Shown piece after piece: positions 4,640 to 20,129 of a stretch of 20,129 bases of DNA (positions are counted from its first letter, which is position 1; each line of letters starts with the position of its first letter). The stretch is taken from IMG/VR virus record IMGVR_UViG_2534681762_000006; one strand, 5' to 3'. The notes below the pieces were generated by a model. That model saw nothing but the letters and a program-made list of their open reading frames with translations. It was not told where the DNA came from and searched no databases. The stretch is from a virus (Duplodnaviria > Heunggongvirae > Uroviricota > Caudoviricetes). A program made the position numbers and the translations under genes.

Positions 4640-7198
<2,559 letters not shown>

Positions 7199-7217
7199 TC
7201 ACGCTCCATAAATGACA

Positions 7218-7237
7218 AAACCGCCCGCAGGCGGTTT
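7218..7237 (-). other. I-J intergenic stem-loop (possible weak terminator or attenuator)
   Basis: 8-bp stem aaaccgcc / ggcggttt with a 4-nt loop, followed on the minus-strand transcript by a moderately U-rich stretch and then the J ribosome-binding site. Confidence 0.35.
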
Positions 7238-7255
7238 CACATAAAACATTTTGCA

Positions 7256-7550
7256 TCAGCGACCAATCACCACAACCTGACCACCGTCCCCTTCGTCTGC
7301 CGTGCTGATCTCCTGAGAAACCACGCGAGACCCCACGCGCATTTCCCCGTACAGAACAGGCAGAACATTGCCCTGGGCAACCATGTTATCCAGTGAGGAG
7401 AAATAGGTGTTCTGCTTACCGTTATCCGTTGTCTGTGTACGGGGAGTTCTGGCTTTCGGTGCCAGCATCTGCGCCACACCACCGAGCACCATACTGGCAC
7501 CGAGAGAAAACAGGATGCCGGTCATACCACCGGTCCCAATGGCTGCCCCC
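7256..7550 (-). CDS. I: tail tip assembly protein I, C-terminal part, in the frame downstream of a 1-nt frameshift
   Basis: ORF 7256..7552 translates to MGAAIGTGGMTGILFSLGASMVLGGVAQMLAPKARTPRTQTTDNGKQNTYFSSLDNMVAQGNVLPVLYGEMRVGSRVVSQEISTADEGDGGQVVVIGR, matching the lambda gpI C-terminus. Confidence 0.85.
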
Positions 7551-7926
7551 ATGCTGCAAGGGTGGCTCCGGCGGTAAAGAATGATCCGGCAATGGCGGCA
7601 GCCCCCAGGACAATCTGGAATACGCCACCTGACTTGGCCCCGGCGACTCTGGGAACAATATGAATCACAGCGCCATCAGGCAGAGTCTCATGTAACTGCG
7701 CCGTTAACCCGGACGTGCTGACGTCCCGCCCGGCAATCCGTACCTGATACCAGCCGTCGCTCAGTTTCTGACGAAACGCCGGGAGCTGTGTGGCCAGTGC
7801 CCGGATGGCTTCAGCCCCCGTTTTCACACGAAGGTCGATGCGGCGACCAAATCGTTGTAAATCCCCGTAAAGGCAGATGCGCGCCATGCCCGGTGACGCC
7901 AGAGGGAGTGTGTGCGTCGCTGCCAT
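7546..7926 (-). CDS. I: tail tip assembly protein I, N-terminal part, in the frame upstream of the frameshift
   Basis: ORF 7522..7926 begins MAATHTLPLASPGMARICLYGDLQRFGRRIDLRVKTGAEAIRALATQLPAF, the lambda gpI N-terminus. After ...TLAAWG it leaves frame and ends in 7 missense codons. The start overlaps the K 3-prime end by 103 nt, as in lambda. Confidence 0.85.
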
Positions 7927-8567
7927 TTGTCGGTGTACCTCTCTCGTTTGCTCAGTTGTTCAGGAATATGGTGCAGCAGCTCGCCGTCGCCGCAGTAAAT
8001 TGCGGCGTGATTCGGCACTGATGAACCAAAACAGCACAGCAGCACATCGCCCGGCTGTGCCGCTGACAACGGCACCTGATACAGCCCCGTCGCCTCCAGA
8101 TTATCCAGATAGAGATTCTGGCCGTGACGCCACCAGTCATCCTCACGATAAAAGTCCGGCATCTCAATCCCCGCCAGATGATAAGCATCCCGGAACAGTG
8201 TGTAACAGTCCGTCACACCGTGCTCAAAGCGCCGCCCGGAAAGATGCGGCACACAGCGGAACTTATGAATCGTCCCCCGGCAGACCAGCCACCACGGCAA
8301 ATCACTCTGCACCTGCAGCCGCCGGTCGGCCTCACTCAGCCAGGGCAGACCACCGGGGTGGCTGTGGACCAGCGCCACAATCTCACCCTGCATTTCTGCC
8401 TGCAGCCAGTCTTCCGGCGACATACGGAAATACGCCTCCGGCTCACCGGAGATATTCACGCAGGGAAAATATCTTTCCCCCTCCGGCGTGCTTACCACGA
8501 AGCCGCACGACTCCGCTGGCGCACATCGCCGGGCGTGCGCCAGAATCGCTGATTCTGTCTGTGTCAT
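7824..8567 (-). CDS. K: tail tip assembly protein K (MPN/JAB plus NlpC/P60 domains); long form 247 aa from ATG at 8565-8567, lambda-annotated short form 199 aa from ATG at 8421-8423
   Basis: Translation matches lambda gpK. The open frame extends 48 codons upstream of the conventional start with no stop, and that extension contains AESCGFVV, which resembles the conserved Glu of the JAMM motif that precedes HSHPGG. Confidence 0.85.
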   Translation of the reverse strand: MTQTESAILAHARRCAPAESCGFVVSTPEGERYFPCVNISGEPEAYFRMSPEDWLQAEMQGEIVALVHSHPGGLPWLSEADRRLQVQSDLPWWLVCRGTIHKFRCVPHLSGRRFEHGVTDCYTLFRDAYHLAGIEMPDFYREDDWWRHGQNLYLDNLEATGLYQVPLSAAQPGDVLLCCFGSSVPNHAAIYCGDGELLHHIPEQLSKRERYTDKWQRRTHSLWRHRAWRASAFTGIYNDLVAASTFV

Positions 8568-8572
8568 GGGAT

Positions 8573-9271
8573 TTACTGCGAAAGTTTGTTAATGGAAAGG
8601 AAGCCGCCAAAGTTGCCGACGTTATTGCGGAACTTACAACCGCTCAGGCATTTGCTGCATTTATCCTTCGTGATATCGGACGTTGGCTGGTCATATTCAT
8701 CCGCGACAGCCGGACCGCTATAACCGCACTCGTCACCGCGATAGGTCCAGGTGCAGGTGTTGGCCAGCATGATACGTCCCGGAAAAACAGCGCCATCCGT
8801 TTCCGTCGGCGTGGACAGTACAAAGGAGGCACTCACCGCGCTCAGTTCGCTGCACTGCTCAATGCGCCAGCGGCTGATCACCTCCTGCTCCGGATCGGCG
8901 TAACTGTTTCCGTTGACGAAGTTCACCGCATCCAGAAAACGGGCGTAAACCTTACGCCGGACCACCGTTCCGCCGACCAGACTCTGCATATCTTCCGCCA
9001 TCCCGGTGACCATACCGTACAGGTTAGAAACCGTCAGCGTGGGGCGCGTACTGGTGCCTTTGCCATTCAGTTCAAAACCGCTCCCCTGAATGGGATACGG
9101 CTGATACTGTCGCCCCTGCCAGGTGACCGGCTCACCTTTTTCGTTCTGCTCATTACAGAAAAAATAACGTTCTCCACCGACCTCTGTCAGGTCGATTTCC
9201 CAGAGCACCACGCTGGCCGACTGCTCCGCACGGGTGCATTCATTCAGTGTTTCCTGCCGGATATCCTGCAT
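8573..9271 (-). CDS. L: tail tip assembly protein L
   Basis: 232 aa, the same length as lambda gpL. Starts MQDIRQETLNECTRAEQSASVVLWEIDLTEVGGERYFFCNEQNEKGEPVTWQGRQYQPYPIQGSGFELNGKG. Confidence 0.9.
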   Translation of the reverse strand: MQDIRQETLNECTRAEQSASVVLWEIDLTEVGGERYFFCNEQNEKGEPVTWQGRQYQPYPIQGSGFELNGKGTSTRPTLTVSNLYGMVTGMAEDMQSLVGGTVVRRKVYARFLDAVNFVNGNSYADPEQEVISRWRIEQCSELSAVSASFVLSTPTETDGAVFPGRIMLANTCTWTYRGDECGYSGPAVADEYDQPTSDITKDKCSKCLSGCKFRNNVGNFGGFLSINKLSQ

Positions 9272-9600
9272 CAGTTCACCACCTGTTCAAACTCTGCGCT
9301 GAACTCAACACGCAACATACTGACCCGCGACGACCATTTTGCGCAGGTCACCTTTATCTGCCGCCACTCATAAGGCGGCGTCCACAGAAAGGATTTCCAG
9401 CCCCCGTGCTCTTCCAGAAACGACTCCAGTACCGTGGCCTCCTCACGGGGGACAGAAAGCGTCACGCTGTACGTTTTCAGGTTGGCATTCAGCCCGGCAG
9501 GCGCTCGCTGAGAATAGCCATCACCAAAGCGCACCTTTCTTACAGAAGGGACCGAAGCCACATCCATACCGGGTTTCACTTTCCAGCGGAAGGTCTTCAT
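9271..9600 (-). CDS. M: tail tip assembly protein M
   Basis: 109 aa, the same length as lambda gpM. Its start overlaps the H stop by 4 nt (ATGA) and its stop abuts the L start, as in lambda. Confidence 0.9.
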   Translation of the reverse strand: MKTFRWKVKPGMDVASVPSVRKVRFGDGYSQRAPAGLNANLKTYSVTLSVPREEATVLESFLEEHGGWKSFLWTPPYEWRQIKVTCAKWSSRVSMLRVEFSAEFEQVVN

Positions 9601-10301
9601 CGTCCACCTCCGGAGAACAGGCCACCATCACGCATCTGTGTCTGAATTTCATCACGGGCACCCTTGCGGGCCATGTCATACACCGCCTTCAGAGCAGCCG
9701 GACCTATCTGCCCGTTCGTGCCGTCGTTGTTAATCACCACATGGTTATTCTGCTCAAACGTCCCGGACGCCTGCGACCGGCTGTCTGCCATGCTGCCCGG
9801 TGTACCGACATAACCGCCGGTGGCATAGCCGCGCATCAGCCGGTAAAGATTCCCCACGCCAATCCGGCTGGTTGCCTCCTTCGTGAAGACAAATTCACCA
9901 CGGTGAACAATCCCCGCTGGCTCATATTTGCCGCCGGTTCCCGTAAATCCTCCGGTTGCAAAATGGAATTTCGCCGCAGCGGCCTGAATGGCTGTACCGC
10001 CTGACGCGGATGCGCCGCCACCAACAGCCCCGCCAATGGCGCTGCCGATACTCCCGACAATCCCCACCATTGCCTGCTTAAGCAGAATTTCTGTCATCAT
10101 GGACAGCACGGAACGGGTGAAGCTGCGCCAGTTCTGCTCACTGCCGGTCAGCATCGCCGCCATATTCTGTGCAATACCATCAAAGGTCTGCGTGGCTGCA
10201 CTTTTTACCTGCGACATACTGTCCGTGGCGCTCTCTTCCCACTCACTCCAGCCGGACTTCAGGCCTGCCATCCAGCTCCCGCGAAGCTGGTCTTCAGCCG
10301 C
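9597..10301 (-). CDS. H: tail tape measure protein H, C-terminal segment (234 codons) downstream of an in-frame TAG
   Basis: In frame with ORF 10302..12158. It reads AAEDQLRGSWMAGLKSGWSEWEESATDSMSQVKSAATQTFDGIAQNMAAM...RDGGLFSGGGR, matching the lambda gpH C-terminus. Confidence 0.88.
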   Translation of the reverse strand, partial: AAEDQLRGSWMAGLKSGWSEWEESATDSMSQVKSAATQTFDGIAQNMAAMLTGSEQNWRSFTRSVLSMMTEILLKQAMVGIVGSIGSAIGGAVGGGASASGGTAIQAAAAKFHFATGGFTGTGGKYEPAGIVHRGEFVFTKEATSRIGVGNLYRLMRGYATGGYVGTPGSMADSRSQASGTFEQNNHVVINNDGTNGQIGPAALKAVYDMARKGARDEIQTQMRDGGLFSGGGR

Positions 10302-12158
10302 CTAGGTCTTTTTCTGCTCTGACATGACGTTATTCAGCGCCAGCGGATTATCGCCATACTGTTCCTTCAGGCGCTGTTCCGTGGCTTCCCGTTCTGCCTG
10401 CCGGTCAGTCAGCCCCCGGCTTTTCGCATCAATGGCGGCCCGTTTTGCCCGTTGCTGCTGTGCGAATTTATCCGCCTGCTGCGCCAGCGCGTTCAGGCGC
10501 TCCTGATACGTAACCTTGTCGCCAAGTGCAGCCAGCTGGCGTTTGTACTCCAGCGTCTCATCTTTATGCGCCAGCAGGGATTTCTCCTGTGCGGACAGCT
10601 GGCGACGTTGTGCCGCCTCCTCCAGTACCGCGAACTGACTTTCTGCCTTCCACAAATCCCGGCGCTGCTGGCTGATTTTCTCATTCGCTCCGGCATGCTT
10701 CTCCAGCGTCCGGAGTTCTGCCTGAAGCGTCAGCAGGGCAGCATGAGCACTGTCTTCCTGACGATCGCCCGCAGACACCTTCACGCCGGACTGTTTCGGC
10801 TTTTTCAGCGTCGCTTCATAATCCTTTTTCGCCGCCGCCATCAGCGTGTTGTAATCCGCCTGCAGGATTTTCCCGTCTTTCAGTGCCTTGTTCAGTTCTT
10901 CCTGACGGGCGGTATATTTCTCCAGCGGCGTCTGCAGCCGTTCGTAAGCCTTCTGCGCCTCTTCGGTATATTTCAGCCGTGACGCTTCGGTATCGCTCTG
11001 CTGCTGCGCATTTTTGTCCTGTTGAGTCTGCTGCTCAGCCTTCTTTCGGGCGGCTTCAAGCGCAAGACGGGCCTTTTCACGATCATCCCAGTAACGCGCC
11101 CGCGCTTCATCGTTAACAAAATAATCATCCTTGCGCAGATTCCAGATGTCGTCTGCTTTCTTAAACGCAGCCTCTGCCTTAATCAGCATCTCCTGCGCGG
11201 TATCAGGACGACCAATATCCAGCACCGCATCCCACATGGATTTGAATGCCCGTGCTGTCCTGTCTGCCCAGGTTTCCAGCGTGCCCATGTTCTCTTTCAA
11301 GCGTCGGGTCTGGTCATCAAACCCTTTCGTTGCGGCCTCGTTCGCCGCCTGCAATGCCCCGGCTTCATCGCCGGAACGCTGCAACTGAGCAACATACGCA
11401 ATCTGCTCCGCCGTCACGTTATGGAACTGGCGTGCCATCGCCGTCAGCCCCGACGTCGGGTCTGTGGTCAGCTTCCCGAAGGCTTCAGCGACCTTGTCCA
11501 CCTCCACGCCGGATGCAGAGGAGAAACGCGCCACACTCTGGCTGATGGACGCAATCTGAGCCTCACCGCTTACCCCCGCCTTAACCAGTGCGCTGAGTGA
11601 CTCGCTGGTCTGGTTAAACGTCAGCCCTGCCGCCTGCCCGGCTCTGGACAGGACCAGCATACGATCTGCCGTCAGTCCCGCCTGATTGCCGGAAAGGACC
11701 AGCGTTTTGTTGAAATCGGACAGGGTTGAGTTGCCCTGATACCAGGCATACGCCAGCGCTCCGGTCGCCACCGCCAGCGAGGTAGCCCCCACCATCGGCA
11801 GGGTGATCGCACCGGCAAGCCCCCGGAACATGGGGATCATCCCGCCGAAGGAGTCCTTCACCTGACCCCCCTGTTGCAGCAGGATCAGCCACGGACTTTG
11901 CCCGCCTGCAAGCTGCGTGGCCACGTCAGTGAACTGCGCAGGCAGCATACGCATGGCGGCTTTATACTGCCCGACGGAAATTCCCGCTTTCTGTGCAGCC
12001 AGCGCCTGCCGGTTCATCGACTGTTCAACGACTGCCGCTGTTTTTTTCGCATCACTTTCCGTACCGGAAAAATGACGCCTGACTCTGGCCATCTGCTCGT
12101 CAAATCTGGCCGCATCCAGACTCAAATCAACGACCAGATCGCCTACCGGTTCAGCCAT
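10302..12158 (-). CDS. H: tail tape measure protein H, N-terminal 618 codons, ending at an in-frame TAG (10302-10304)
   Basis: Starts MAEPVGDLVVDLSLDAARFDEQMARVRRHFSGTESDAKKTAAVVEQS. The segments total 618 + 1 + 234 = 853 codons, exactly the lambda gpH length. The stop sits where I recall Trp in lambda (...MSEQKKT-W-AAEDQL). Confidence 0.9.
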   Translation of the reverse strand: MAEPVGDLVVDLSLDAARFDEQMARVRRHFSGTESDAKKTAAVVEQSMNRQALAAQKAGISVGQYKAAMRMLPAQFTDVATQLAGGQSPWLILLQQGGQVKDSFGGMIPMFRGLAGAITLPMVGATSLAVATGALAYAWYQGNSTLSDFNKTLVLSGNQAGLTADRMLVLSRAGQAAGLTFNQTSESLSALVKAGVSGEAQIASISQSVARFSSASGVEVDKVAEAFGKLTTDPTSGLTAMARQFHNVTAEQIAYVAQLQRSGDEAGALQAANEAATKGFDDQTRRLKENMGTLETWADRTARAFKSMWDAVLDIGRPDTAQEMLIKAEAAFKKADDIWNLRKDDYFVNDEARARYWDDREKARLALEAARKKAEQQTQQDKNAQQQSDTEASRLKYTEEAQKAYERLQTPLEKYTARQEELNKALKDGKILQADYNTLMAAAKKDYEATLKKPKQSGVKVSAGDRQEDSAHAALLTLQAELRTLEKHAGANEKISQQRRDLWKAESQFAVLEEAAQRRQLSAQEKSLLAHKDETLEYKRQLAALGDKVTYQERLNALAQQADKFAQQQRAKRAAIDAKSRGLTDRQAEREATEQRLKEQYGDNPLALNNVMSEQKKT

Positions 12159-12585
12159 ACCGGACTCCTCCTGCGATCCCTTCTGATACTGTCATCAGCA
12201 TTACGTCATCCTCCGTCATGTCCGCCACATCCGGGGAAGCGGGGATAACTTCATTCCCGTCCGGGCCAAAGCGGACGCCTCCGGCAAGCCCTGCCGCTTT
12301 CTGCATCAGCACATCATCTTCAGGCTCTTCGTCAGCCTCGCGCCGGTTCAGCAGACTGAAATCCAGCGGATGCATATCCGGATCGCTGAAAAACAGGCTG
12401 AGTACGGTGTACGTCAGCCCGGAAAAGTGCATATCCAGCAGAACATCATGAAAATAATGGGTACTGTAAAAGCGGTGCCAGTCGGCATACTCCGTGGATG
12501 ACATCCCGGCAAGCATGGCGCGCCAGTCGGGTCGCCCCATCTCACGCGCCAGTTTCAGGGCAAAACTCAGCTCACCGTCGAACAC
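12151..12585 (-). CDS. T: T-frame of the tail assembly chaperone, expressed only as a G-T fusion by programmed -1 frameshifting (the listed start is an ORF-caller artefact)
   Basis: ORF translation (M)FDGELSFALKLAREMGRPDWRAMLAGMSSTEYADWHRFYSTHYFHDVLL matches the lambda T-frame. It overlaps H by 8 nt and G by 19 nt, as in lambda. Confidence 0.85.
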   Translation of the reverse strand: MFDGELSFALKLAREMGRPDWRAMLAGMSSTEYADWHRFYSTHYFHDVLLDMHFSGLTYTVLSLFFSDPDMHPLDFSLLNRREADEEPEDDVLMQKAAGLAGGVRFGPDGNEVIPASPDVADMTEDDVMLMTVSEGIAGGVRYG

Positions 12586-12989
12586 TTTCCCGCAGAAACA
12601 GGCTCTGCTGGCCCGGCGTCATCTGCCTGTTCAGGTGCATCATTCACAACAAACTCAGACATACCGGACAGACGCATTACCACATTTTCAGCCTGAGCAA
12701 TTGCCTCTGTGGGCCAGGTGGTAAGCACTTCCTGCTCAATTTGTTTAACGGCTTCATTCATGGACGGCATCTTTGTCTTCTGCGGATGGCTATGCCACAG
12801 GGACATCGCCACCAGAAAAGCACCGGTTCTGACGAGATCTTCCACGCTCACCTGTCGATTGAGACTGGATCCCGCCTGTTCTGCCTGTCGTTTCAGCAGG
12901 GCGAGATGCTCAATTCGCTGCAGGGCTGACAGTTCAGAAAGCGTGACGCTCACACCGTTATATTCAAATGATTCGGTTTTCAGGAACAT
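12567..12989 (-). CDS. G: tail assembly chaperone G
   Basis: 140 aa, the same length as lambda gpG: MFLKTESFEYNGVSVTLSELSALQRIEHLALLKRQAEQAGS... Confidence 0.9.
   Translation of the reverse strand: MFLKTESFEYNGVSVTLSELSALQRIEHLALLKRQAEQAGSSLNRQVSVEDLVRTGAFLVAMSLWHSHPQKTKMPSMNEAVKQIEQEVLTTWPTEAIAQAENVVMRLSGMSEFVVNDAPEQADDAGPAEPVSAGKCSTVS
12585..12591 (-). other. programmed -1 ribosomal frameshift slippery heptamer G_GGA_AAG (G to G-T fusion)
   Basis: Plus-strand ctttccc at 12585-12591 is GGGAAAG on the minus strand. In the G frame the codons are GCG GGA AAG UGU; after a -1 slip the reading is GGG AAA GUG UUC GAC..., giving the T-frame sequence VFDGELSF. Confidence 0.85.
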
Positions 12990-13004
12990 CGCTGACTCTC
13001 CGGA

Positions 13005-13745
13005 TTAACTGTCGGTGACGGTGATTTCTGCAACCACAGCAAGTTCACCATTACCGGATACAACCGGAATGTTGACCTTGCCTGCAGCAACACCTTTCAC
13101 GGTGATGGTCATACCACTGACCGACACGGTGGCTTTTGTTTTATCCGCAGACACCGCACGGAAGCTCTTGTCGGTTGCGCCTTCCGGCTGGAATGCCACG
13201 GTCAGCGTGGTGCTCTGCCCTTTCACCACCGAAGTGCTGGCAGGCGTCACGGTCATGCCGGTTGCCGCTGTTACCGTGCTGCGATCTTCTGCCATCGACG
13301 GACGTCCCACGTTGGTGACTTTCACCGTGCGGGTGATCACTTCCTTCGCCGTCACCGCCTTACCGATACTGCTGACCCAGCCGCGAAACACATCGACCGT
13401 GCCGTTCGGGAAGCGGATTTTATAGGCACGGGTATCCCCTTCATTAAACCACGCCAGCAGCGCCTGCTGCCCCTGCTCTCCGGGCATCCACGCCAGCGTG
13501 AAGCTGGTATCTCCGGCAGATTTCTGCCCCTGCCCGGTCGCAGTCCAGTCCGCATCTTCATCATCGAGATAGCTGTCGTCATAGGACTCAGCGGTCAGTT
13601 CGCCGGGCGTCAGGTCTTTAACTTTAGCCAGACGCGACCAGTCAACGTCTGAAAGCGGGTTCGCATAAGGGTCACCGTTCCCCTTATAAACCCACAGTGT
13701 GGTCCCGGCCCCTTTCACCGGCATTACTGGATTTGGTACAGGCAT
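13005..13745 (-). CDS. V: major tail tube protein V
   Basis: Start chosen at ATG 13743-13745 ([22 protein letters not shown]...), giving 246 aa as in lambda gpV. The ORF track extends to an upstream ATG at 13775, which would overlap U. GAGGA Shine-Dalgarno 4 nt upstream. Confidence 0.88.
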
Positions 13746-13752
13746 AGCGTCC

Positions 13753-14148
13753 TCACATTTCATAGGTAATGACATAAGTCAGATCGGCTGAACTCCACAG
13801 GCCCGCATCATCGTCGCGCCGGTAGTCATAGCCACTGGCCACCAAACTGGTGATCAAATCTGACAGTGCCGGGACATCGCTCATCACCGGATAAATCCGG
13901 GACTCCATCCACGAATCCAGCTCTGAATCCGGCACCTGAGCAGGCAGGAAAACTTCAATATGCAGCTCCGCCTGCCAGGTATCACTGTCCAGCTCTTCGC
14001 CCGTGTATTCAGCGCCGGTGAGATAAACGGCAATTGCCGGAAAATCCGCCTCATCAAAAACAGCGGGGCGACCATCAAAAAGCGTCGCCCCGGTGTCATG
14101 CTTCTCCAGTGCATCCAGTACGGCTGCACGGAGTTCAGTATGTTTCAT
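13753..14148 (-). CDS. U: tail terminator protein U
   Basis: 131 aa, the same length as lambda gpU: [54 protein letters not shown]... Overlaps Z by 4 nt. Confidence 0.9.
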
Positions 14149-14723
14149 CGCTTTATTACCATTCTCAGTTGATGCTGCAGCGCATAGCCCAGCTCTTTCG
14201 GAAGACGTTCACGCCGTATCCGTTCAATATTCTGTTTAAACGCCGTGGTAAGCGGCACCGCCATCGGGATTTTCACCACATCAATGGGGTAACGGTTTTT
14301 CCCGGCCACACGCTGCATGACATGCCACCGGCCATTTTTCAGTTGCTGAATAAACGCGCCGGGAATACGACGGTTTCCCACCACAAGCACGCTGCCGCCA
14401 CCTTTCAGGGATGAACGCTGCCCCTTTTTACGACGTCTGCGGCGGGAAAGGACAACCCGCGCGTTACCCAGCTTGATTACGGGCAAATCCCCCCGGTTAA
14501 CCCTGATTCTGGCCTGCGGATTTTTGACCGTGGCCCTTTTCAGCCTGGCCCTTTCCTTTACCAGTTTCCGGCGTACCTTTGTCTCACGGGCAACCTGTGA
14601 CGCAGACTGCGATATCGCGGATGACGCAACGCGGTTAATGGCCATTGCGGCGGCACCAGGCACCGCCGTTTTGCTGATACGGCTGAGGTTTTCAACGGCC
14701 TGCTCAAGACCTTTTATGGCCAT
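14145..14723 (-). CDS. Z: tail completion (head-tail joining) protein Z
   Basis: 192 aa, the same length as lambda gpZ. Confidence 0.88.
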   Translation of the reverse strand: MAIKGLEQAVENLSRISKTAVPGAAAMAINRVASSAISQSASQVARETKVRRKLVKERARLKRATVKNPQARIRVNRGDLPVIKLGNARVVLSRRRRRKKGQRSSLKGGGSVLVVGNRRIPGAFIQQLKNGRWHVMQRVAGKNRYPIDVVKIPMAVPLTTAFKQNIERIRRERLPKELGYALQHQLRMVIKR

Positions 14724-14734
14724 ACATCCCCCTT

Positions 14735-15088
14735 TCAGCGGCGACGGTTAACGGCAGGCGGCACGCCACGCCCAAGCCAGAGATGACAGCTTCCGCCATC
14801 ATCCGGCGAAATCCGGTCCACCCAGAAGTTTTCCTCGCCGATGGTCAGCGTGTCGCCGCGCCGCAGCTGCCGCACATCATCAGTCCGGACAAACAGGGAC
14901 GGGCTGGAGCCTTCAACGCGCACCCCCTGTCCGGCATAGCTGATATTTTCAGGGTCATCAAAAACACCACGTATCACAGCACCGGACAGCTCACCGGATG
15001 TCATGGTGGCTGACGTTCCCATGTACCCGCGTATCGTTTCATCGGCGCGGGCAATGGCAGCATCGAACAGGTTATCGGAATCAGCCAC
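14735..15088 (-). CDS. FII: head-tail connector protein FII
   Basis: 117 aa, the same length as lambda gpFII: MADSDNLFDAAIARADETIRGYMGTSATMTSGELSGAVIRGVFDDPENISYAG... Confidence 0.88.
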   Translation of the reverse strand: MADSDNLFDAAIARADETIRGYMGTSATMTSGELSGAVIRGVFDDPENISYAGQGVRVEGSSPSLFVRTDDVRQLRRGDTLTIGEENFWVDRISPDDGGSCHLWLGRGVPPAVNRRR

Positions 15089-15099
15089 AGCGCCTCCCG

Positions 15100-15498
15100 T
15101 TATTGCATTCTGGCCAGGCCATGTTCTGTCATTTCGGCTGCCACACCGGCAGAGACACGAAACGCCGTTCCCGGCAGCACAAATGCCACAGGCTCATCCC
15201 GCGTGGCGTGAAGTGCATCAGTATGCAGCGTCACCAGTGCCACGACCGTGACCAGAGCAGCCGTATCAATCACGGTATCCGGCTGCGCTGATACCACCTC
15301 ATTTTCATGTCCGGTCAGCGCATTTTCCGGGCTGACAGATGTGTCCTGACCGGCAGCGTCATCCGTGTCATCAAGCTCCTCTTCCAGCTCTGCCACACGG
15401 AGCACCAGTTCTTCTTTCGTCCCCGTCAGGCTGACATCACGGTTCAGTTGTTCACCCAGCGAGCGGAGACGGGCAATCAGTTCATCTTTCGTCATGGA
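15100..15498 (-). CDS. FI: DNA packaging / head assembly protein FI
   Basis: Start chosen at ATG 15496-15498 (MTKDELIARLRSLGEQLNRDVSLTGTKEEL...), giving 132 aa as in lambda gpFI, with a GGAGGAG Shine-Dalgarno upstream. The ORF track starts 12 codons further upstream. Confidence 0.88.
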   Translation of the reverse strand, partial: SMTKDELIARLRSLGEQLNRDVSLTGTKEELVLRVAELEEELDDTDDAAGQDTSVSPENALTGHENEVVSAQPDTVIDTAALVTVVALVTLHTDALHATRDEPVAFVLPGTAFRVSAGVAAEMTEHGLARMQ

Positions 15499-15516
15499 CT
15501 CCTCCACAGAGAGAAA

Positions 15517-15534
15517 ATGGCCCCGAAGGGCCAT
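15517..15534 (-). other. E-FI intergenic hairpin with a UUCG tetraloop
   Basis: Stem atggccc (15517-15523) pairs with gggccat (15528-15534). The plus-strand loop cgaa is UUCG on the minus-strand mRNA, closed by a C-G pair. It is followed by UUUCUCUCU and the FI Shine-Dalgarno. Confidence 0.5.
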
Positions 15535-15536
15535 GA

Positions 15537-15572
15537 TTACGCCAGTTGTACGGACACGAACTCATCAGGATC
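15537..15572 (-). pseudogene. E: 3-prime remnant of major capsid gene E (last 11 codons DPDEFVSVQLA plus stop), separated from the rest of E by the IS66 insertion
   Basis: Hand translation of the minus strand gives GAT CCT GAT GAG TTC GTG TCC GTA CAA CTG GCG TAA. It is contiguous with the E fragment at 18661.. once the IS and one TSD copy are removed. Confidence 0.85.
15565..15572. repeat. target-site duplication TCAGGATC, left copy
   Basis: Identical 8-mer immediately outside both IS ends. Removing the IS and one copy rebuilds an uninterrupted E sequence (gaactcatcaggatcagccaacag on the plus strand). Confidence 0.9.
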
Positions 15573-15657
15573 GTAACCGTCTCATTTAAACCGTCTTTCG
15601 CCTCCCTTTCCTGTTTCCGATACTAATGTCCATTTTCGCAGTAAAGGGACATTTAAG

Positions 15658-16308
15658 ATGAATGCACGAAAAGCGGTACTGGCAGACAATCCGGAATTGA
15701 TCCTGCGTGTGCTACAACTGAGATTTGACGAGTCACTGTCGTACCCGCGCATTTCTGCGCAGACCGGTATCAGCAAAACCGCCATTTTTTCTCTGGTGAG
15801 GCGATTTCACCAGGTATTCACTGACTGGCCTCTTTCCGGAGAATATTCCTGCGTGCAACTGGCCCGGGCTCTGTTCCCGGGGCGATACCCTTCAGCCCCG
15901 ACAGTGACTCAGCCTGTGAAAACAGAGAAAATCCGCCGGAACCGATTTTCACCGGAGTTTAAATGGAGGCTTGTTCAGCAAACTCTTTTACCCGGTGCCT
16001 GTGTCGCACAAATAGCTCGTGAGAACGGAATCAACGATAACCTGCTCTTTAACTGGCGGCATCTCTGGCGTAACGGCGGCCTGCAGCCGACCGGCGAACA
16101 TGAAACATCGCTACTTCCCGTGACGTTAACTCCGGAGCCGGATAATAAAATCCCGGCACCAGTGCAGATACCTGAACAGATAAATACACCGCCCGACAGT
16201 CTGTGCTGTGAGCTGGTTCTGCCGGCCGGAACTCTCAGGCTGAAAGGTGAACTGACACCGGCGTTATTACAGACACTTATCCGCGAAATGAAAGGGAGCA
16301 GCCACTAA
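15658..16308 (+). CDS. tnpA: IS66-family accessory protein TnpA (Orf1), helix-turn-helix
   Basis: 216-aa ORF, first gene of the IS. Its stop overlaps the tnpB start (ATGA). Contains a transposase-like helix-turn-helix region (RRNRFSPEFKWRLVQQTLLPGACVAQIARENGINDNLLFNWR). Confidence 0.75.
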   Translation: MNARKAVLADNPELILRVLQLRFDESLSYPRISAQTGISKTAIFSLVRRFHQVFTDWPLSGEYSCVQLARALFPGRYPSAPTVTQPVKTEKIRRNRFSPEFKWRLVQQTLLPGACVAQIARENGINDNLLFNWRHLWRNGGLQPTGEHETSLLPVTLTPEPDNKIPAPVQIPEQINTPPDSLCCELVLPAGTLRLKGELTPALLQTLIREMKGSSH

Positions 16309-16655
16309 TGATATCTCTCCCTGCCGGTTCGCGTATCTGGCTGGTTGCCGGTATCACCGACATGCGAAATGGTTTTAACGGCCTGGCATCAAAAGTTCAG
16401 AACGTCCTGAAGGATGACCCGTTCTCCGGGCATCTGTTCATCTTCCGCGGACGCCGGGGTGACCAGATAAAAGTGTTGTGGGCTGACAGTGACGGACTGT
16501 GCCTCTTCACCAAACGCCTGGAGCGGGGCCGCTTCGTCTGGCCGGTTACCCGTGACGGCAAGGTGCACCTTACTCCGGCTCAGTTATCTATGCTTCTTGA
16601 AGGTATCAACTGGAAGCACCCGAAACGAACGGAACGCGCTGGCATCCGCATATAA
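16308..16655 (+). CDS. tnpB: IS66-family protein TnpB (Orf2)
   Basis: 115 aa: MISLPAGSRIWLVAGITDMRNGFNGLASKVQNVLKDDPFSGHLFIFRGRRGDQIKVLWADSDGLCLFTKRLERGRFVWP, the typical IS66 Orf2. Confidence 0.88.
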   Translation: MISLPAGSRIWLVAGITDMRNGFNGLASKVQNVLKDDPFSGHLFIFRGRRGDQIKVLWADSDGLCLFTKRLERGRFVWPVTRDGKVHLTPAQLSMLLEGINWKHPKRTERAGIRI

Positions 16656-16674
16656 CCCGTTGTAAAGTGAGGAT

Positions 16675-18228
16675 ATGGACACCTCACTTGCTCATGAGAA
16701 TGCCCGCCTGCGGGCACTGTTGCAGACGCAACAGGACACCATCCGCCAGATGGCGAAATACAACCGCCTGCTCTCACAGCGGGTGGCGGCTTATGCTTCC
16801 GAAATCAACCGGCTGAAGGCGCTGGTTGCGAAACTGCAGCGCATGCAGTTCGGTAAAAGCTCAGAAAAACTTCGCGCTAAAACCGAACGGCAGATACAGG
16901 AAGCCCAGGAGCGAATCAGCGCACTTCAGGAAGAAATGGCGGAAACGCTGGGTGAGCAATATGACCCGGTACTGCCATCCGCCCTGCGCCAGTCTTCAGC
17001 CCGTAAGCCGTTACCGGCCTCACTTCCCCGTGAAACCCGGGTCATCCGGCCGGAAGAGGAATGCTGCCCGGCCTGTGGTGGTGACCTCAGTCCTCTGGGG
17101 TGTGATGTGTCAGAGCAACTGGAGCTTATCAGCAGCGCTTTTAAGGTTATCGAAACACAACGTCCGAAACTGGCCTGTTGCCGGTGCGACCATATCGTGC
17201 AGGCACCAGTACCTTCAAAACCCATTGCACGCAGTTATGCCGGAGCGGGGCTTCTGGCTCATATCGTCACCGGGAAGTATGCAGACCATCTGCCGTTATA
17301 CCGCCAGTCAGAAATATACCTTCGTCAGGGCGTGGAACTGAGCCGCGCCACGCTGGGGCGCTGGACCGGTGCCGTTGCTGAACTGCTGGAGCCGCTGTAT
17401 GACGTGCTGCGCCAGTATGTGCTGATGCCCGGTAAAGTCCATGCGGATGATATCCCCGTTCCGGTCCAGGAGCCGGGCAGTGGTAAAACAAGAACTGCCC
17501 GGCTGTGGGTCTATGTCCGTGATGACCGTAACGCCGGTTCACAGATGCCCCCGGCGGTCTGGTTCGCGTACAGCCCGGACCGGAAAGGTATCCATCCACA
17601 GAATCACCTGGCCGGTTACAGCGGTGTGCTTCAGGCAGATGCTTACGGTGGTTACCGGGCGTTATACGAATCCGGCAGAATAACGGAAGCCGCGTGTATG
17701 GCCCATGCCCGGAGAAAAATCCACGATGTGCATGCAAGAGTGCCAACCGACATCACCACGGAAGCCCTGCAGCGTATCGGTGAACTGTATGTCATCGAGG
17801 CAGAAGTCCGGGGATGTTCAGCAGAACAGCGTCTGGCAGCAAGAAAAGCCAGAGCGGCTCCACTGATGCAGTCACTGTATGACTGGATACAGGAACAGAT
17901 GAAAACACTGTCGCGTCACTCGGATACGGCAAAAGCGTTCGCATACCTGCTGAAACAGTGGGAGGCCCTGAACGTGTACTGCAGTAATGGCTGGGTGGAA
18001 ATCGACAACAACATCGCAGAGAACGCCTTACGGGGAGTGGCCGTAGGCCGGAGAAACTGGCTCTTCGCGGGTTCCGACAGCGGTGGCGAACATGCGGCGG
18101 TGTTGTACTCGCTGATCGGCACATGCCGTCTGAACAATGTAGAGTCCAGAAAAATGGCTTGCGTTACGTTATTGAGCATATCCAGGACTGGCCGGCAAAC
18201 CGGGTACGCGAATCTGTTGCCCTGGTAA
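16675..18228 (+). CDS. tnpC: IS66-family DDE transposase TnpC, C-terminus frameshifted inside the first unit of the tandem duplication
   Basis: 517-aa ORF with an N-terminal coiled-coil and a CxxC...CxxC zinc-ribbon-like motif (CPACGG...CCRCDH). It ends ...[34 protein letters not shown], whereas the duplicated unit and the second IS copy read ...[37 protein letters not shown](T/S)SQ. Confidence 0.88.
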
Positions 18229-18660
18229 AGTTGATCTGACTTCTCAGTAAATATCAATACGGTTCTGGCGAGCCGCTTACAGATGAAAACACTGTCGCGT
18301 CACTCGGATACGGCAAAAGCGTTCGCATACCTGCTGAAACAGTGGGAGGCCCTGAACGTGTACTGCAGTAATGGCTGGGTGGAAATCGACAACAACATCG
18401 CAGAGAACGCCTTACGGGGAGTGGCCGTAGGCCGGAAAAACTGGCTCTTCGCGGGTTCCGACAGCGGTGGCGAACATGCGGCGGTGTTGTACTCGCTGAT
18501 CGGCACATGCCGTCTGAACAATGTAGAGCCAGAAAAATGGCTGCGTTACGTTATTGAGCATATCCAGGACTGGCCGGCAAACCGGGTACGCGATCTGTTG
18601 CCCTGGAAAGTTGATCTGACTTCTCAGTAAATATCAATACGGTTCTGGCGAGCCGCTTAC
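17897..18660 (+). repeat. direct tandem duplication of the IS66 right end: unit 1 at 17897..18280 (384 bp) and unit 2 at 18281..18660 (380 bp), each ending in the right inverted repeat
   Basis: Unit 2 repeats unit 1 from agatgaaaacactgtcgcgtcactcgg through gagccgcttac. Unit 1 differs by four 1-nt insertions (gagtccag vs gagccag; ggcttgcg vs ggctgcg; gcgaatctg vs gcgatctg; ccctggtaaag vs ccctggaaag) and one substitution (ggagaaactgg vs ggaaaaactgg). Confidence 0.9.
18283..18630 (+). CDS. TnpC C-terminal fragment (115 aa) encoded by duplication unit 2; an intact version of the transposase C-terminus
   Basis: [115 protein letters not shown]. Near-identical to the C-terminus of the second IS copy. 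Confidence 0.7.
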   Translation: MKTLSRHSDTAKAFAYLLKQWEALNVYCSNGWVEIDNNIAENALRGVAVGRKNWLFAGSDSGGEHAAVLYSLIGTCRLNNVEPEKWLRYVIEHIQDWPANRVRDLLPWKVDLTSQ

Positions 18661-18668
18661 TCAGGATC
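18661..18668. repeat. target-site duplication TCAGGATC, right copy
   Basis: See the left copy. 8 bp is the characteristic target-site duplication length for IS66-family elements. Confidence 0.9.
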
Positions 18669-19398
18669 AGCCAACAGCATCAGCGGTGCTGACTGAATCA
18701 TGGTGAACTCACGCGCCGGATCGCCGGTGGTCACCCAGTTTTTCGGGTAGCGGGCAGAGGCGTTAATACCTTCGCGCTGTGCGTCCGCATCCTGAATGCA
18801 GCCATAGGTGCGCAGACCGCGTGCCTGAGTGTTCCCCAGCACCATCGTGTTGTCCGGCAGGAAGTTCTTTTTGACGTCGTTTTCCACGTACTGTCCGGAA
18901 TACACGACGATCGCCGTATCGCCATACATCCCCTTATAGGACACCGCTTCGCCCAGGTCTTTTACCGCTGTCTCCAGCTCGGAATTAGAGCCGCGACGGG
19001 TATCCAGCTTCTCCTTGACGGCTTTGAAGGAACGGAACAGCGCCCAGCCTTTCGGATCAAACACGATGATATTCACCACGCCGCTGGCGTTCAGCGCGTA
19101 GGCTTCGATATCGTCGGTCGGGTCATACGTGGACTTGTCACGCTTGCTCCACTCCGTGCCGCCGGACTGCGTGATGTTGTTCGCCGCACTGCGGCCCATA
19201 TCCACCTCAACCGGATCGAAGGCTTCACCGGTCATGGTGTATTTGCCCTTGAGCACGGCAGAAACTGCCTGCATCTCTTCGACCTGAGCAATGGCCAGCT
19301 CTTCGTCACGCATGTTCTGCAGGATGATGCGACGGCGGCGGTAAGCCGGGTCCGCCAGATTCTGCGGATCTTCATCCGGCAGGCGACGCAGGGTCATC
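18661..19398 (-). pseudogene. E: major capsid protein E, internal fragment (about codons 91-333 of 341), bounded on both sides by IS66 ends
   Basis: ORF 18657..19397 translates to MTLRRLPDEDPQNLADPAYRRRRIILQNMRDEELAIAQVEEMQAVSAVLKGKYTMTGEAFDPVEVDMGRS...MIQSAPLMLLADP, matching lambda gpE from an internal Met. The terminal Glu and TAA stop are created at the IS junction. Confidence 0.88.
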
Positions 19399-20129
19399 GT
19401 AAGCGACTCGTCAGAACCGTATTGATATTTACTGAGAGCTCAGATCAACTTTCCAGGGCAACAGATCGCGTACCCGGTTTGCCGGCCAGTCCTGGATATG
19501 TTCAATGACGTAACGCAGCCACTTTTCTGGCTCCACATTGTTCAGACGGCATGTGCCGATCAGCGAGTACAACACCGCCGCATGTTCACCACCGCTGTCG
19601 GAACCCGCGAACATCCAGTTTTTCCGGCCTACGGCCACTCCCCGTAAGGCGTTCTCTGCGATGTTGTTGTCGATTTCCACCCAGCCATTACTGCAGTACA
19701 CGTTCAGTGCATCCCACTGTTTCAGCAGGTATGCGAACGCTTTTGCCGTATCTGAGTGACGCGACAGTGTTTTCATCTGTTGCTGTATCCAGTCATACAG
19801 TGACTGCATCAGTGGCGCGGCTCTGGCTTTTCTTGCCGCCAGACGCTGTTCTGCTGAACAGCACCGGACCTCTGCCTCGATGGCATACAGTTCACCGATA
19901 CGCTGCAGGGCTTCCGTGGTGATGTAGGTGGGCGCTCTTGCATGCACATCGTGGATTTTTCTCCGGGCATGAGCCATACACGCGGCTTCCGTTATTCTGC
20001 CGGATTCGTATAACGCCCGGTAACCACCGTAAGCATCGGCCTGAAGCACACCGCTGTAACCGGCCAGGTGATTTTGTGGATGGATACCTTTCCGGTCCGG
20101 ACTGTACGCGAACCAGACCGCCGGGGGCA
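19399..20129 (-). mobile_element. second IS66-family copy in inverted orientation, partial (runs off the right edge); its right inverted repeat abuts E at 19399
   Basis: Plus strand at 19399 reads gtaagcgactcgtcagaaccgtattgatatttactgag, the reverse complement of the first copy's right end with 2 mismatches in 38. Internal sequence encodes the TnpC C-terminal half on the minus strand. Confidence 0.85.
19429..20129 (-). CDS. tnpC: IS66-family transposase TnpC, C-terminal portion (5-prime part lies beyond the window)
   Basis: ORF 19429..20049 ((M)[60 protein letters not shown]...KVDLSSQ); the frame stays open upstream to the window edge (...[27 protein letters not shown]). It shows several amino-acid differences from copy 1 (for example VPTDITT vs APTYITT, WEAL vs WDAL, NWLF vs NWMF). 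Confidence 0.85.

Follow-up and report, generated by a model that had tools for sequence, protein, structure and literature searches.

Defective prophages riddled with insertion sequences (IS) are found in pathogenic Escherichia coli and Shigella, for example with IS629 in O157 prophages, and IS66-family insertion sequences have reportedly been described by Han et al. in 2001 (J Bacteriol 183:4296) and by Gourbeyre et al. in 2010. In related lambdoid prophages of finished genomes, single ISCro1-type IS66 elements of 2699 bp are present within gene E of the H10407 prophage (locus L001, 9946-12644; 8-bp duplication GATCAAAC), within D of the MS 119-7 prophage (L002, 10121-12819; 8-bp duplication CAGCCTCC) and within FII of the A1 prophage (L003, 3684-6382; 8-bp duplication CGAAATCC). 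More E. coli genome records show other spacings between E and the IS.

Here we analysed a stretch of DNA of 20,129 bp, referred to as the window, which is the entire draft contig AQEJ01000040.1 (GCA_000355115.2), whose proteins carry the label '[Escherichia coli ThroopD]'. The ETEC strain ThroopD was isolated in Dallas in 1975 (PMC4309559, PMC4462620). Besides the region of E, the window carries a lambdoid tail module comprising stf, lom, J, I, K, L, M, H, T/G, V, U, Z, FII and FI. Window positions 6566-15572 are 98.4% identical to the H10407 prophage (NC_017633.1, 1.31 Mb) and share its gene order (tail genes, Z, FII, FI, E), a comparison that stops at the 36-nt E 3′ end, the internal fragment of E having been compared with the E. 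coli genome set only. The major capsid gene E is cut in three by two separate IS66-family insertions. The overall explanation, which we hold with considerable confidence, is that of a decaying lambda-like prophage in ETEC ThroopD whose E gene was disrupted by two independent IS66-family transpositions and persists as three collinear pieces. Two of these pieces lie in the window:

18661-19398, (-) strand: internal fragment of E, nt 261-998, residues 88-333 of 341, placed by alignment to intact E
15537-15572, (-) strand: 3′ terminal piece of E, nt 991-1026, the last 11 codons (DPDEFVSVQLA) plus the stop, read directly

In the H10407 and MS 119-7 prophages, which are related to that of ThroopD, full-length E measures 1026 bp and encodes 341 aa. 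The internal fragment, which is 99.8% identical at the nucleotide level to annotated major capsid genes, contains a 246-aa ORF (18657-19397, (-) strand) that matches Pfam Phage_cap_E (PF03864; E=2.5e-46; profile positions 94-322 of 329). The stop codon of this ORF falls within an IS terminus, the 3′ end of the E fragment being cut as well. The 3′ terminal piece is located directly upstream of FI (15100-15534), beyond the first IS66 copy (copy 1), and is collinear with E of H10407 and MS 119-7. The assignment of the gene to the lambda gpE type is supported both by the family-profile match and by the conserved position beside FI. With the 5′ piece on another contig, the pieces of E cover nt 1-268, 261-998 and 991-1026; they are collinear, and neighbours overlap by exactly 8 bp. 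Production of capsid protein from ThroopD E is impossible. As the earlier note had claimed, the 738-bp E fragment lies between two inverted IS66 right ends, identified by Pfam matches and by right-end repeats that end at 18660 with ...GAGCCGCTTAC and start at 19399 and enclose exactly 738 bp. Its statement that E is interrupted by the second copy (copy 2) also stands, except that the break falls in codon 87 by alignment to intact E and not at about codon 91; the duplication associated with copy 2 spans codons 87-90.

The features of copy 1 and of its flanks are as follows:

15573-18280, (+) strand: IS66-family copy 1 as assembled, 2708 bp (Pfam matches and terminal repeats)
starting at 15573: left inverted repeat of copy 1, GTAACCGTCTCATTTAAACCG
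15658-16308, (+) strand: copy 1 tnpA (Pfam HTH_Tnp_1, 5.6e-16)
16308-16655, (+) strand: copy 1 tnpB (Pfam TnpB_IS66, 4.7e-40)
16675-18228, (+) strand: copy 1 tnpC (LZ_Tnp_IS66, zf-IS66 and DDE_Tnp_IS66, 7.1e-103), frameshifted near the C-terminus
ending at 18280: first right end of copy 1, ...GAGCCGCTTAC
18281-18660, (+) strand: 380-bp tail, which repeats the final 380 bp of the copy-1-type IS (direct repeats D1-D3, spacing 380-384)
15565-15572: left copy of the 8-bp target-site duplication of copy 1, TCAGGATC
18661-18668: right copy of the same duplication, TCAGGATC, which brackets the IS plus the tail

Copy 1 shows the tnpA-tnpB-tnpC arrangement, imperfect terminal repeats starting with GTAA and the 8-bp target-site duplication of the IS66 family. 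Because TCAGGATC is present at both flanks, with E sequence on either side, copy 1 is an insertion within E. Its right end, the reverse complement of GTAAGCGGCTCGCCAGAACCG, terminates at 18280 and again at 18660. Compared with a 2704-bp copy in the finished F6326-C1 genome, copy 1 is 99.4% identical and has four extra bases. Its body is a natural allele: window positions 17550-18052 have many 100% matches in finished genomes, and ten substitutions relative to a finished reference likewise belong to an allele with 100% matches in other genomes. The first ~418 nt (15573-15990), which comprise the left end and the 5′ part of tnpA, have only the 24-nt terminal repeat in common with the ISCro1 type; the remaining 2.3 kb are 94.6% identical to the ISCro1-type element of H10407. 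A copy-1-type IS66 was also seen just upstream of Nu1 in another lambdoid prophage (L015, 1262-3848; GCA_000225245.2, AFEB01000020.1), where tnpC is broken into ORFs of 368 and 115 aa.

The tail of copy 1 contains an intact tnpC 3′ end and a right inverted repeat, and it is the right end that actually touches the E fragment. The region with the two right ends occupies 17895-18660. The tail ORF (18283-18630, 115 aa) matches Pfam DDE_Tnp_IS66 and IS66_C. As assembled, copy 1 tnpC is frameshifted from 18145 and ends without the IS66 C-terminal element; putting the tail in place of the first right-end segment would restore a 523-aa TnpC, and an intact transposase, with autonomy of the element, would hinge on whether the doubled end is genuine. 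The frameshift is caused by four single-base insertions that, together with one substitution, lie within 175 bp of the first right-end segment:

18053-18226, (+) strand: five private changes of the first right-end segment, namely a substitution (G) at 18053 and +1 insertions at 18145 (T), 18159 (T), 18211 (A) and 18226 (T)

Chances are slightly better than even that the extra 380-bp right end is an assembly artefact, the true locus containing one ordinary 2704-bp IS. Dropping either repeat leaves an element of 2704 bp that aligns without gaps to the finished-genome copy. This copy is matched by the tail at 100% identity, the private changes being confined to the first right-end segment, and the remaining contig contains a single frameshifting indel (9 kb compared with H10407). 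Among ~7,000 IS66 places in 5,426 complete E. coli genomes, no match above 97.6% to 18040-18290 was found, and the joint GCTTAC followed directly by AGATGAAAAC occurred as one piece in none of these genomes (megablast, 18201-18360), so that both the joint and the private variants are absent from this set. In agreement with an artefact, the frameshifted 517-aa TnpC is on record from the ThroopD contig only, and the assembly is reported to have been made from short, 100-nt-class Illumina paired reads with 300-bp inserts using Celera Assembler (PMC4462620). It is harder to reconcile with an artefact that an overlap-based assembler requires reads spanning a junction, that insertions are rare in Illumina reads, and that the first repeat stops exactly at the IS terminus, like a joint made by transposase.

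The exact coincidence of the joint with the IS terminus, and the fact that the 8-bp duplication encloses the whole structure, favour a real rearrangement in which the right terminus of copy 1 became fused to a site inside another copy lying in tandem. Such an event could have proceeded, for example, by formation of a tandem dimer and a subsequent adjacent deletion, or through a one-ended event, and we consider it a serious possibility, somewhat short of an even chance. It would require several steps, and four clustered +1 insertions in one repeat are an abnormal mutation pattern. Moreover, no second example of a tandem right end like that of copy 1 was found in the 5,426 finished genomes or among contigs with the 115-aa tail ORF (24 read, 10 places shown); the contigs inspected carry IS66 remnants cut by IS91, or frameshifted copies. 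It is doubtful, on our estimate, that the second end reflects an IS66 end-anchored rearrangement in which a right terminus cleaved by transposase was joined inside a tandem sister copy and error-prone synthesis beside the joint left the clustered +1 insertions; on this reading the inverted pair around the E fragment could also be an invertible segment in the population. If true, a real second right end would be a natural footprint of a poorly characterised IS66 transposition pathway. Any mechanistic interest that the locus may have is limited to this doubled end. The 380-bp extra right end and the four private +1 insertions beside it, exactly where copy 1 meets E, count against the overall explanation.

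On the other side of the E fragment, the window contains the beginning of copy 2:

19399-20129, (-) strand: IS66-family copy 2 (ISCro1-type), visible 731 bp, with the right inverted repeat and the 3′ 232 codons of tnpC
19391-19398: deduced 8-bp duplication of copy 2, inner copy, (+) strand GGGTCATC, or GATGACCC when read along E (from the protein EMX01651.1 and the window junction)

The right inverted repeat that begins at 19399 reads GTAAGCGACTCGTCAGAACCG (also written GTAAGCGACTCG... and GTAAGCGACTCGTCAG...), and an ORF at 19429-20049 on the (-) strand contains the second half of DDE_Tnp_IS66 (E=2.8e-52) and the IS66 C-terminal element (E=1.3e-16). Copy 2 hence shows both the IS66-type transposase and the right terminal repeat, and a second IS66-family copy starting at 19399 in the opposite orientation, as the earlier note had described it, is borne out. 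Its visible part is 99.7% identical to the 2699-bp ISCro1-type element of the H10407 prophage, and relatives at this identity are annotated by NCBI as 'IS66-like element ISCro1 family'. Taken together, the E fragment plus copy 2 are 99.6% identical to H10407 (E. coli genome set). The contig ends 731 bp into copy 2, and only the inner junction of this copy is inside the window, as had been said before. The window stops at this point because a multi-copy IS repeat was not bridged by the short reads and the draft contig ended; the end of a window inside a repeat can be the end of a contig and not biology.

To look for the same layout elsewhere, 5,426 complete E. coli genomes were searched by megablast with window positions 18100-20129, 18201-18360 (tail junction) and 15490-15680 (left junction of copy 1). 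None of the three junctions was contiguous in any of them, and thus no finished relative confirms the layout. Apparent full-coverage matches proved to be two pieces of ordinary IS and not the junctions. Exact matches to a 30-mer across the junction of E with copy 2 were sought in GTDB species representatives, in IMG/VR and in JGI metagenomes, and none was found. The protein encoded by the E fragment is on record on two contigs, AQEJ01000040.1 and NKEQ01000157.1. The latter (891 bp, GCA_002462765.1), which comes from a separate assembly, consists of the 738-bp E fragment flanked at either end by 72-78 nt of IS terminus, and both inner junctions match the window base for base. Because NKEQ01000157.1 has both, the inner junctions are real and no artefact of the ThroopD assembly. 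The second assembly is most simply explained as that of a related isolate.

The far junction of copy 2 was approached through the peptide that it should encode. If E nt 1-268 abutted the IS left end GTAACCGNCTCATTTAA, translation would read through into the IS and yield a 94-aa product, E(1-89) followed by RNRLI and a stop (C/GT AAC CGN CTC ATT TAA). The predicted 94-aa E(1-89)+RNRLI sequence is present exactly in the protein collection, on 3 contigs, the longest of which measures 523,891 bp, and an 89-aa 'partial' form of E ending in ...QMT is found on 7 contigs. On the 523,891-bp contig, which belongs to ThroopD, the protein is EMX01651.1 (92 aa, starting from Met3; 'phage major capsid E family protein [Escherichia coli ThroopD]'), which corresponds to E(3-89)+RNRLI* and ends in ...NPQMT-RNRLI*. 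A homology search returned cluster representatives only, none of which had the RNRLI tail. Only a junction after E nt 268 yields the RNRLI peptide, and therefore the E 5′ part joins an IS66 left end; since the window junction is at nt 261, the duplication of copy 2 is GATGACCC. As DNA, the far junction would read ...CCGCAGATGACCC followed by GTAACCGNCTCATTTAAACC. A left end of copy 2 with a matching 8-bp duplication was found in this way at the protein level, in one annotated ThroopD protein. We infer the far junction of copy 2, and with it the full length of the element, from EMX01651.1, and copy 2 is most likely complete and the result of a simple insertion. The H10407 prophage, 98.4% identical over 9 kb, has genes D, C, B, W, A and Nu1 in this order, and by analogy they would be expected upstream of E in ThroopD as well. 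In another strain, a short contig carries C-D-E and ends at E nt 266. The earlier note had asked whether codons of the E 5′ part follow the far end of copy 2 and whether that end has its own duplication; codons 3-89 and the implied 8-bp duplication GATGACCC were both recovered through EMX01651.1, at the protein level. The same protein speaks against the two outcomes that the note had named as fatal to its reading, namely a copy 2 without a left end and the lack of an E 5′ part. More generally, a missing junction can be recovered by predicting a read-through peptide and looking it up.

Over the 731 bp that they share, the two copies differ by 29 substitutions, which change about 8 amino acids, and are 96% identical. 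The earlier suggestion that copy 2 did not arise as a recent duplicate of copy 1 agrees with these differences and with the 99.7% identity of copy 2 to the ISCro1-type element. The copies are independent insertions of different variants, the copy 1 type being a mosaic IS66-family variant that is common in ETEC genomes. Gene conversion between the copies was considered and rejected, since 8 of the 10 differences of copy 1 from one finished reference are not copy-2 alleles.

The inverted arms around the E fragment show 96% complementarity over 382 nt, and 96% over 599 nt when copy 2 is compared with the copy 1 body. RecA-mediated exchange could take place between arms of this size, which extend over 382-599 nt in the visible part (96%) and over about 2.3 kb in full, and the right side of copy 2 is outside the window. 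From such a layout the earlier note had reasoned that recombination between the inverted copies may have inverted or deleted DNA, leaving the head genes beyond E displaced or lost. We regard this as very improbable, given that matching 8-bp duplications are found on both sides of copy 1 plus its tail, that the E fragment and the E 3′ end share one orientation and are collinear, and that no hybrid copy is seen, the right-end segments of copy 1 being all copy-1-type and the visible part of copy 2 all ISCro1-type. In addition, the junction between E(1-89) and an IS66 left end, with its matching duplication, exists in ThroopD (protein level). Neither mismatched duplications nor hybrid copies nor a reversed inner segment, as expected of IS-mediated inversion, were found in the visible parts. 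Because the duplication of copy 1 is intact and the E fragment is collinear with 15537-15572, the visible arrangement is native and uninverted. The proposed fate of the head genes thus found no support, and loss of the E 5′ part is contradicted by E(3-89)+RNRLI* in EMX01651.1.

The same layout of two related inverted IS around a short segment, which resembles Tn5 and Tn10, and the recurrence of the fragment and its junctions in a second assembly might suggest a composite transposon that arrived, or is mobile, as one piece with E as passenger. This is extremely unlikely, because each IS has its own 8-bp duplication within E and the three E pieces are collinear with exact 8-bp overlaps. The 89- and 94-aa N-terminal fragments of E on about 10 contigs are consistent with descent within a lineage. 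A single outer duplication and a passenger unrelated to the target, the marks of a composite transposon, were both absent, and there was no sign of the IS-E fragment-IS structure moving as a unit. The separate duplications and the collinear, 8-bp-overlapping E pieces lead us to conclude that the structure was formed in place by two insertions.

Under the preferred explanation of two independent transpositions, the window carries, on the minus strand, genes for the tail and for head completion from a lambda-like prophage in decay. A 2704-bp element of the copy-1 type would have entered E at nt 991-998, giving the duplication TCAGGATC, with its transposase genes opposite to E; a common 2699-bp ISCro1-type element would have entered at nt 261-268, giving the duplication GATGACCC, with its genes in the same direction as E. 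The analysis showed directly both inner junctions, the copy 1 duplication, which contig the window is and how far the two copies diverge. Beyond what the earlier note contained, the contig ends in a repeat, copy 1 also lies in E, and the right end that faces E is the 380-bp tail.

Other structural genes of the prophage are damaged as well:

10302-10304, (-) strand: in-frame TAG in the tape-measure gene H, which leaves two ORFs (618 and 224 aa), whereas in H10407 the homologue is intact at 853 aa
4640-4642, (-) strand: in-frame TGA in the tail-tip gene J, leaving ORFs of 851 and 262 aa
7545: frameshift in a C run of the tail assembly gene I (C5 here, C6 in H10407)

The lesion in gene I is the only frameshifting indel in the 9 kb aligned to the H10407 prophage. 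The damage to H, J and I fits a prophage in decay. With its E gene in three pieces and with lesions in H, J and I, the ThroopD prophage cannot form particles. The significance of the locus goes little beyond annotation: the capsid gene of the ThroopD prophage is dead.

When the locus is set beside known systems, both copies share the transposase domains of the IS66 family (IS66, IS679, ISCro1-type), and copy 1 also shares its gene layout, GTAA repeats and 8-bp duplication; copy 1, in its assembled form, departs from this family by its two right ends and by the frameshift in tnpC. With the composite transposons Tn5 and Tn10 the locus has in common two related inverted IS copies around a short DNA segment. 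In contrast to these transposons, the inner ends are the right ends of non-identical elements, each element has its own duplication, and the 'passenger' is the part of the target gene between the insertion sites. IS66 insertions recur in the D-E-FII region of lambdoid prophages, which may be a preferred target region. The E gene of the H10407 prophage is likewise broken by an ISCro1-type element, whose orientation is that of copy 2; the difference is that H10407 has one insertion, at E nt 51-58, whereas ThroopD has two, at nt 261-268 and 991-998, made by two IS variants. As in the IS-riddled prophages of E. coli and Shigella, from which it shows no substantive difference, structural genes of the ThroopD prophage are inactivated by IS and by point mutations, and the locus is an ordinary, already known case of IS-mediated prophage inactivation.
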